Virus record (IMG/VR): IMGVR_UViG_2684623059_000002
DNA length: 45,162 nucleotides
Source: a virus
Lineage: Duplodnaviria; Heunggongvirae; Uroviricota; Caudoviricetes
Reading direction: 5' to 3' (one strand)
Shown: positions 16,296 to 16,878 of the stretch, piece after piece
Layout of the letters: the number at the start of each line of letters is the position of its first letter
Position numbering within the stretch: position 1 is the first letter of the stretch
Program-made: the position numbers and the translations under genes
The notes under the pieces: model-generated
The model's database searches: none
Seen by the model: the letters and a program-made list of their open reading frames with translations, nothing else
What the model was told of the DNA's origin: nothing

Positions 16296-16640
16296 ATGAC
16301 TCAAAACTATGAACTGATTGTGAAAGGGATCCGCAATTTTGAGAATAAAGTTGCGGTAACTGTAGCATTAAGGGACAAAAAACGCTTTGACGGTGAAATT
16401 TTTGACCTGGACATCTCGCTGGACCGTGTTGAAGGTGCCGCGCTGGAGTTTTATGAGGTAGCAGCCAGAAGGAGCATCAGACAGGTCTTCCTGGAAGTTG
16501 CAGCCGGGTTCTGTGAAGGGGATGAGCTGTCGCCGGAAAAGCGCCCCGTAATTTTAGAGGCGCAGAATGTGTGGATAACCTACAAAGGAAAGCTACCAGG
16601 AAGAATTACTGATTCTCTGAAGACTCCACCGAAATGGTAA
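16296..16640 (+). CDS. Hypothetical protein between holin and endolysin (114 aa)
   Basis: ORF 5 nt after the holin stop, same strand as the lysis operon. Confidence 0.5.
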   Translation: MTQNYELIVKGIRNFENKVAVTVALRDKKRFDGEIFDLDISLDRVEGAALEFYEVAARRSIRQVFLEVAAGFCEGDELSPEKRPVILEAQNVWITYKGKLPGRITDSLKTPPKW

Positions 16641-16878
16641 TTTTACCAGCATATTTTTCTTCCAGTAATGCCGCCAGCCACTTGAAAGAATTTTGTTGTT
16701 CCTGGGACCATTTGGGGTTGCGTGATTCAAGCAGGAGCGATGCCAGTGTTGGTTGCATTTGTTCTCTGGGAATTGATAAGGCCAAATATGAAAATGCAAC
16801 AGTGAGGGCATTTACATCATCCCGAAGCTTTGAAATGCAGTCGAGCAACTCCTGTAGAGAAATGGTGTTATTGTCCAT
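16606..16878 (-). CDS. Hypothetical 90-aa protein encoded antisense within the lysis cassette (possibly YdfR/DUF1327-like)
   Basis: ORF with strong AGAGGA RBS 8 nt upstream of ATG; 3' end overlaps the convergent plus-strand gene by 35 nt. Confidence 0.5.
   Translation of the reverse strand: MDNNTISLQELLDCISKLRDDVNALTVAFSYLALSIPREQMQPTLASLLLESRNPKWSQEQQNSFKWLAALLEEKYAGKITISVESSENQ

Follow-up and report, generated by a model that had tools for sequence, protein, structure and literature searches.

A small antisense gene in the ydfR-endolysin slot of lambdoid prophages as a probable moron-type cassette cargo

Several described genes of lambdoid phages bear on the subject of this report, ORF90, a minus-strand gene located between ydfR and an endolysin gene in the viral DNA stretch IMGVR_UViG_2684623059_000002 (Caudoviricetes; 45,162 nucleotides, hereafter the window). 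The lambda bor gene is a moron that encodes a lipoprotein, provides serum resistance, and lies beside the lysis genes against the direction of late transcription. In the definition of Juhala et al. (2000), as summarized in PMC3594210, a moron is extra DNA between genes that are adjacent in related phages, with a differing base composition, its own promoter, its own terminator, and expression from the repressed prophage. HK97 gp15, a moron in the late region that is expressed in the lysogen, is an inner-membrane protein that functions in superinfection exclusion (PMC3594210). The neighbor of ORF90, YdfR, has a counterpart in Escherichia coli K-12 that was reported in 2026 to bind the catalytic (N-terminal) half of RNase E in two-hybrid and co-purification experiments, with a binding surface within its first 72 residues, and that may co-purify with RNA (PMC13232886).

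The window represents the late region of a lambdoid prophage of E. coli. An earlier note, made from the sequence alone, had pointed to a convergent pair formed by a 114-aa plus-strand gene (ydfR) and a 90-aa minus-strand gene (ORF90), overlapping by 35 nt, and this arrangement is confirmed (Table 1). The same note had described the minus-strand ORF as antisense to the late operon and its function as undescribed, both of which hold, and had offered a moron and a lysis-timing regulator as possible roles. In the explanation that we favor and regard as fairly likely, ORF90 is a genuine small gene that is carried as a moron-type cassette cargo, antisense in a slot that recurs between ydfR and the endolysin gene, and that is expressed in the lysogen with an accessory rather than a lysis role.

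Judged by its pattern of substitutions, ORF90 is a genuine gene under purifying selection. The earlier note had made its proposal depend on conservation of the minus-strand frame in related prophages, and this frame is open in 35 of the 37 distinct sequence variants found at 171 related loci. When the same numbers of substitutions were placed at random, about 19 of the 37 variants were expected to be broken and none of 2000 runs matched the observation, a figure that is indicative only, since the variants are phylogenetically related. Pairwise estimates of dN/dS (all values given here are of this kind) were 0.33 for ORF90 among close variants and 0.25 with more variants. A value of 0.25 was also obtained against an 89-aa homolog from a genomic island of E. 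coli EC15 (WP_000976359.1; 58% amino acid and 69% nucleotide identity), from which ORF90 differs at 22, 16 and 44 sites in codon positions 1, 2 and 3, respectively; the surroundings of this homolog are wholly unlike the ORF90 locus. The good ribosome-binding site that the earlier note had recognized, AAGAGGA six bases before the ATG, is kept in 28/28 upstream variants, and the island copy has AAGATGA.

We describe ORF90 as moron-type because the module that carries it is present or absent between the same neighbors, is low in G+C, occurs at several antisense sites, and has an upstream region like that of an HK022 moron; for these reasons, the moron alternative of the earlier note now appears to be its best description. 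Extra DNA is evident from comparison with PhiR55_1, which has the holin gene, ydfR and the lysozyme gene as in the window without the minus-strand ORF: aligned homology breaks at approximately 16635 and picks up at 16926, leaving ~290 nt that are absent from PhiR55_1. In K-12 Qin, ydfR abuts rrrQ, its stop codon overlapping the rrrQ start, and there is no cassette slot. The G+C fraction of the module is 0.42, compared with 0.47 for ydfR and 0.51 for both the lysozyme gene and the whole window. PhiR55_1 keeps a decayed promoter stretch without a cargo, which suggests cargo loss in this case rather than primary absence.

The minus-strand ORF region is present at a coverage of at least 80% in 1053 of 5426 complete E. 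coli genomes (~19%). The closest genome match to the window (99.8%), in E. coli 14EC007 (L002, 4397-6053), has an IS3 element inside ydfR, with ORF90 and its upstream region intact despite it. Close relatives (at least 73% amino acid identity) nearly always occur in a holin-ydfR-[antisense]-lysozyme arrangement, an order also annotated by RefSeq, with the antisense gene as hypothetical, in CFT073 and many other strains; this arrangement is complete with full flanks in 136 of 169 related loci, and most of the others end at contig ends. ORF90 is also kept where ydfR is mostly deleted to a remnant (L168/L169), before a different lysis set composed of holin_8, holin_3_7 and an M15 peptidase (L175), and in a Shiga-toxin phage in which an IS66 element cuts its upstream region (L174).

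Distant relatives are found antisense between tail genes M and L (L180-L182), antisense in Yersinia adjoining a lambda tail-I-like gene (L189), antisense just upstream of terminase genes (L178), and antisense in Citrobacter upstream of a lambda-S-type holin gene (L191). In every prophage setting examined, the homolog opposes the late operon. The EC15 homolog (L176, 2467-2736, minus strand; L177, 8986-9255) is located on the chromosome outside any prophage, directly downstream of genes for an autotransporter O-heptosyltransferase and a 1638-aa AIDA-like autotransporter, and the island is flanked by IS21, IS3 and IS66 remnants and a cdiBAI locus. A 92-aa distant member (profile E 4.8e-5) occurs on an enterobacterial chromosome between dinI and bssS, downstream of rne-pyrC and co-oriented with its neighbors (L186, 5001-5279; L187, 1463-1741). 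In three other settings, the homolog overlaps a small convergent ORF, and these partners are related neither to YdfR nor to one another. The scattered sites and the unrelated overlap partners therefore argue against both a dedicated lysis role and a YdfR-ORF90 pair.

The slot itself accepts other genes. In phage Evi and the viral contigs L225 and L269, an unrelated 98-aa cargo with a full canonical leader (see below) stands in place of ORF90 in the holin-ydfR-[antisense]-lysozyme order, and PhiR12_1 has yet another cargo there, with a weak leader match. The PhiR12_1 ORF (86 aa, antisense, annotated DUF1823) was considered as an ORF90 homolog and rejected at 24% identity with a poor alignment; we take it as a different cargo in the same slot.

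Upstream of ORF90, the minus strand contains a candidate -10 element, TATGTT (16945-16940), and a candidate -35 element, TTTATC (16968-16963), separated by a 17-nt spacer. The segment 16986-16940 agrees with canonical cassettes, L267 among them, at 44 of 47 nt, CCCTGGATAT within this promoter region is kept in Citrobacter and other distant homologs, and the TAnnnT positions are invariant or nearly so across 79 cassettes, the HK022 srb moron included. Transcription is predicted to start at ~16933; beyond this point, the leader in the window is shorter than, and unlike, the canonical leader. The predicted RNA fold of 16936-16870 has an energy of -19.5 kcal/mol (z = -2.97), and the core of the leader hairpin, GCCUG/CAGGC, is conserved without informative covariation. 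A search of the window for the canonical loop GAUGGCUGAUUA, with up to 3 mismatches allowed, gave no match, and Rfam has no family for the ORF90 region. By eye, an upstream ATATCAGGRTGTTR fits the integration host factor (IHF) consensus and is a candidate site. Two further candidates were rejected: a LexA box in the upstream palindrome, because its spacing is wrong, and a sigma-54 promoter in the loop motif, which has no -12 element.

In the proposed mechanism, a weak sigma-70-type promoter with TATGTT as its -10 element would drive ORF90 from the predicted start, and the gene would be transcribed when Q-dependent late transcription is off, i.e., in the lysogen. After induction, collision with late transcription would simply silence it. 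The orientation of the gene and the homology of its promoter allow moderate confidence that ORF90 is transcribed from a weak promoter of its own while late transcription is silent. The protein, in turn, would bind a host or incoming-phage protein and serve as an accessory of the lysogenic-conversion or exclusion type; that it is a helical protein acting through some host or phage partner is proposed with low confidence.

The ORF90 protein is acidic (pI 4.6; ~10 kDa) and, with neither a signal peptide nor a membrane segment predicted, is probably cytoplasmic. It matches phrog_2411, a family of unknown function, over its full length (E 4.9e-57; residues 1-90 on profile positions 1-90 of 90), and has no match in Pfam or NCBIfam. 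In its AF2 model (mean pLDDT 71.5), helices span residues 8-17, 22-35, 38-52 and 59-77, and the C-terminal residues 80-90 are disordered. An exhaustive profile search of 1.8 billion representatives recovered only 20 proteins, including full-length relatives of 81-97 aa, with the family core E-L-L..I..L+..VN.L..AFSYLAF....E....T+..L.FES.N. Genome scans revealed further copies in Yersinia massiliensis, Citrobacter meridianamericanus and Escherichia ruysiae, and no match came from scanning viral contigs with P0033, a divergent homolog. Against PDB sequences, a profile search returned coiled-coil noise only. PADLOC gave no match at E <= 1 for ORF90, YdfR and four of the five ORF90 homologs tested; a weak partial match of homolog P0078 to PDC-M71B (E 0.0049, 13.6 bits) was discounted. 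Literature searches with DUF1327, protein accessions, PHROG 2411 and leader sequences yielded nothing on ORF90.

Several results weigh against the moron-type, lysogen-expressed interpretation. The candidate promoter is weak, matching the consensus at 4/6 positions of the -10 and 3/6 of the -35 element, and a simple consensus promoter scan did not flag it. R1, a covariance model of the canonical leader, had no match in the window at E <= 1. The island copy shares the ribosome-binding site and the ORF only, not the promoter. A terminator is part of the classic moron definition, and a terminator scan found none after ORF90, which runs into antisense ydfR; its only hit was a weak terminator-like site at 16117-16103 (minus strand). 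Fold searches with the ORF90 model returned generic helical-repeat neighbors only, and the literature searches found no report of an ORF90 transcript, transcription start or protein under any condition.

A conserved element was first seen upstream of distant ORF90 homologs, and a 16-nt seed taken from it, GRATGGCTGATTAMCT, matched at least 120 viral contigs. In 102 of these seed matches the full canonical context was present, before 66 distinct proteins that fall into 14 sequence clusters; the cargo proteins have 63-175 aa (median 76), and the clusters comprise many small helical proteins, a zinc-ribbon family and beta-rich families. The type example is the HK022 gene annotated as 'srb protein; moron gene product; gp23', whose promoter and leader are at L312, 1482-1619. 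In an alignment of 79 copies, a palindrome-like ATATCAGG block is followed by the -10-like TAnnnT and then by the structured leader, which begins at (T/C)TCAGCCCG and consists of UCAGCCCG, hairpin P2, and hairpin P3 with the invariant loop GAUGGCUGAUUA. As an observation in its own right, a conserved promoter with a structured 5' leader of ~70 nt thus occurs antisense in prophage late operons before at least 14 unrelated cargo families. Besides HK022, the loci concerned are L192-L311, L313 and L184-L185, together with L178, L180-L182 and L189.

Changes on both sides were seen in 5/8 pairs of P2 and in 3/6 pairs of P3 (AGAGG/CCUCU), and 93.8% of cells are paired in the proposed helices, compared with 28-51% with slid partners. 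A further pairing, P1, of UCAGCC with GGCUGA in the P3 loop is never lost, the only changes being C to U, which keep a G-U pair. P1 is uninformative for covariation, and its invariance is partly a matter of ascertainment because its 3' side lay in the search seed; it possibly represents a long-range pairing or pseudoknot. Rfam has no family for the canonical leader, the literature search for leader sequences gave no match, and the HK022 eLife paper contains no expression data on the srb moron. The P3 loop also holds a conserved mini-ORF, AUG GCU GAU UA(C/A). Candidate CsrA sites are suggested by GGA motifs, both in this loop and in the Shine-Dalgarno sequence of the canonical cassettes.

A broader and more tentative idea is that ORF90 is one cargo of an undescribed cassette system of enterobacterial lambdoid prophages. 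In such a system, a common promoter would serve dozens of unrelated, rapidly exchanged antisense small genes at fixed late-operon slots, the leader, present in most members, would be a new cis-regulatory RNA, and ORF90, HK022 Srb and the other helical cargos would make up one rapidly diversifying family of effectors expressed in the lysogen, e.g., against competing phages. We consider this possible, with the odds against it.

Of the alternatives to an accessory cargo, a role in lysis timing survives best, and we regard it as improbable. Here, the ORF90 protein or the antisense transcript would regulate lysis timing, either by collision or RNA duplex formation over ydfR and the holin gene or by modulation of the holin or endolysin. 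ORF90 does lie among the lysis genes, converging on holin-ydfR and diverging from the lysozyme gene, in an arrangement that is stable over many prophages, and a transcript without a terminator could run antisense into ydfR and the holin gene. However, homologs occur far from lysis genes (in a tail operon, in a terminase region, in a genomic island and on a chromosome between dinI and bssS), and of the closely related lysis cassettes, those of PhiR55_1 and K-12 Qin are without the gene and that of Evi has an unrelated cargo in its place. In addition, purifying selection acts on the protein sequence and not just on the presence of a transcript, and late transcription modified by Q, known in lambdoid phages for its high processivity, is expected to prevail over a weak convergent promoter. 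Thus, the lysis-timing proposal of the earlier note is not supported by the settings of the relatives or by the cassettes without the gene.

Still less likely is a functional two-gene unit of ORF90 and YdfR, antagonistic or toxin-antitoxin-like, in which the overlap would ensure reciprocal expression. For the plus-strand partner, the DUF1327/YdfR profile search suggested in the earlier note gave a match to PF07041 with 141 bits against a gathering cut-off of 25, and comparison of its sequences (dN/dS 0.41) indicates that ydfR is a late-operon gene under moderate constraint. The window YdfR and the K-12 Qin YdfR (P76160) are 80% identical over residues 1-74, and both are encoded between holin and lysozyme genes. 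This partner is not entirely undescribed, K-12 YdfR being reported to bind RNase E (PMC13232886). YdfR proteins appear to combine a conserved N-terminal domain of ~90 aa with interchangeable C-termini, with total lengths of 103, 114, 116, 169 and 183 aa (window, L004, L005, L006). The C-terminal variants fall in PHROGs 406, 2091, 1085 and 34145, an apparent recombination joint directly follows ...SLKTPP, and the long forms have an added coiled-coil-like extension.

In favor of a two-gene unit, ydfR and ORF90 are tightly linked in most of the 169 loci, the homolog overlaps a small convergent ORF in three other settings as well, and a protein modulating the RNase E binding and possible RNA binding of K-12 YdfR (PMC13232886) is conceivable. 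Against it, the other convergent partners are unrelated to YdfR and to one another, ORF90 persists with ydfR largely deleted (L168/L169) and in the island that lacks ydfR, ydfR is often found without ORF90, and the stretch of ORF90 that overlaps ydfR is a disordered tail gained at the junction. We found no sign linking the RNase E activity of YdfR to ORF90.

The origin of this tail is apparent from the alignments. At the nucleotide level, the window and island copies are homologous from the Shine-Dalgarno sequence (16891) down to 16634 and no further; the conserved unit therefore stops about 9 codons short of the ORF90 stop codon. The Citrobacter and Yersinia homologs end in ...ITIS* and ...ITIP*, respectively, at the limit of this homology. 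The final ~9 ORF90 codons (16633-16606; VESSENQ*) are antisense ydfR sequence that is also present in phages without ORF90, and they map to the disordered end of the modelled protein. Conversely, the last two ydfR codons and its stop codon (16632-16640) lie at or within the inserted module. Because the recombination joint sits inside the 3' end of ORF90, the 35-nt overlap is, as far as these comparisons can tell, a recombination-junction scar and not a designed regulatory feature.

The weakest alternative is that the minus-strand ORF is a chance or shadow frame in conserved non-coding or plus-coding DNA. A plus-strand shadow ORF does cover the region, with an ATG that overlaps the ydfR stop codon in a manner resembling translational coupling; it has no PHROG or Pfam match, and its dN/dS (0.25-0.29 among close variants, 0.21 with more variants) is as low as that of ORF90. 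The two frames have their third codon positions in common, and the low apparent dN/dS in both is due to these shared wobble positions. Although the ORF90 family is also narrow, with close relatives confined to Escherichia and Shigella, this possibility is effectively refuted: the plus frame is interrupted by stops in 15/37 variants, including the commonest one (59 loci), which rules out the shadow ORF as a true gene, compared with 2/37 for the minus frame, and the latter is kept at the amino acid level between entirely different flanks in EC15, has full-length distant homologs in Yersinia, Citrobacter and others, and is preceded by a strong, conserved Shine-Dalgarno sequence.

The coordinates of the genes and elements around the pair are collected in Table 1. 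The earlier note had placed the pair between pinholin and signal-anchor-release (SAR) endolysin genes, and the two flanking genes match PF04971 and PF00959; homologs of the holin are labelled 'class II holin family protein' in RefSeq. The lysozyme (dN/dS = 0.09) has a hydrophobic Gly/Ala-rich stretch at its N-terminus that, by inspection, is consistent with a SAR signal.

Table 1. Positions of ORF90 and of the surrounding genes and elements in the window
Feature	Position	Strand	Match or basis
NanS-p-like ORF, 638 aa	13938-15854	+	
Class II holin (phage 21 S-type, pinholin-like), 71 aa	16076-16291	+	PF04971 'phage P21 holin S', E 6.5e-33
YdfR/DUF1327 protein, 114 aa, in late-operon direction	16296-16640	+	PF07041, E 1.4e-41; phrog_406, E 9e-65
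ORF90, 90 aa, PHROG 2411, acidic, four predicted helices	16606-16878	-	
Convergent ydfR/ORF90 overlap, 35 nt, 3' end to 3' end	16606-16640		
Shine-Dalgarno sequence of ORF90, AAGAGGA, six nt before ATG	16891-16885	-	read from sequence
G+C-rich hairpin in predicted ORF90 5' leader	16930-16909	-	
Promoter-like region of ORF90, abutting the lysozyme start codon	16986-16940	-	
Inserted/deleted module (cargo, ribosome-binding site and proximal leader), ~290 nt	16636-16925	-	
Shadow ORF, 94 aa, rejected as a gene	16634-16918	+	
Lysozyme-type endolysin with SAR-like N-terminus, 177 aa	16984-17517	+	PF00959, E 5.7e-25
Rz homolog	17499-17951	+	

Some additional features were observed in the window and in related loci. 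Between the NanS-p-like gene and the holin gene, antisense to the late operon and adjoining a strong hairpin, the stretch 15854-15935 (minus strand) gave a full-length, sub-threshold match to the Rfam family Esr41 (EHEC sRNA 41; 47.5 bits, gathering threshold 102, E 2.5e-7). Downstream of Rz are a gene for a DUF4406 protein related to nucleoside 2-deoxyribosyltransferases (17993-18304, plus strand) and an antisense DUF1398 (YdfO-like) gene (18548-18952, minus strand), which are further accessory genes in the gap between the lysis and terminase genes. In L168/L169 (1589-2123), the genes called after the lysozyme gene encode a ParE-like toxin and a ParD-like antitoxin, and no Rz homolog was called. 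In L191, the lysis cassette consists of a lambda-S holin, a CHAP endolysin and a DUF2514 spanin, and on the other side of the ORF90 homolog is a cargo gene for a pertussis-toxin-S1-like ADP-ribosyltransferase (5945-6847, minus strand).

These data have several implications. Carried by roughly one in five complete E. coli genomes and annotated there as 'hypothetical', ORF90 can now be taken as a real gene, and it is better studied as an accessory gene on the lysogen side than as a lysis gene. Its overlap with ydfR requires no regulatory explanation; the ORF90-ydfR pair is an ordinary product of lambdoid mosaicism. Of wider interest are the recurrent antisense slot and a promoter common to many small cargos, mostly with a covariation-supported leader that is outside Rfam. 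If this leader is a regulatory RNA, it would open a way to study how prophages regulate these accessory genes as a class; it would also be a simple sequence tag for finding them.

In comparison with known systems, the HK022 srb gene (gp23, HK022p22; NC_002166.1, 13751-13972) is similar to ORF90 in several respects. Both genes are small (73 and 90 aa), oppose the late operon, are inserted where related phages have two adjoining genes, and converge on and overlap a small neighboring ORF; their promoter-proximal sequences are homologous. Both proteins are predicted to be helical and share the pattern ...V.AL..AF..L....P.... The ORF90 family aligned by hhalign with the Srb cluster at E 0.003 (probability 11%, 36 columns) and with another helical cargo cluster at E 2e-4 (probability 45%), values that are suggestive of, and do not establish, homology between ORF90 and Srb. 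The two genes differ in that srb is located between tail genes I and J, with a two-hairpin leader and its own terminator after the ORF, whereas ORF90 occupies the ydfR-lysozyme site with a different, shorter leader and without a terminator.

Lambda bor and HK97 gp15 are independent transcription units within late operons that benefit the host, and bor resembles ORF90 in its position against late transcription beside the lysis genes. Unlike the lipoprotein Bor and the membrane protein gp15, whose phenotypes are demonstrated, ORF90 has no predicted signal peptide or membrane segment. The IraM and PmrD-like connector or anti-adaptor genes encode small cytoplasmic proteins antisense in the same prophage late regions, and an activity of their kind is what is proposed for ORF90; they have no sequence or fold relationship to ORF90, and the likeness is one of analogy only. 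Finally, K-12 Qin YdfR differs from the window YdfR in its C-terminus (103 vs 114 aa), and the region in which the two are 80% identical is the one that carries the reported RNase E-binding surface.

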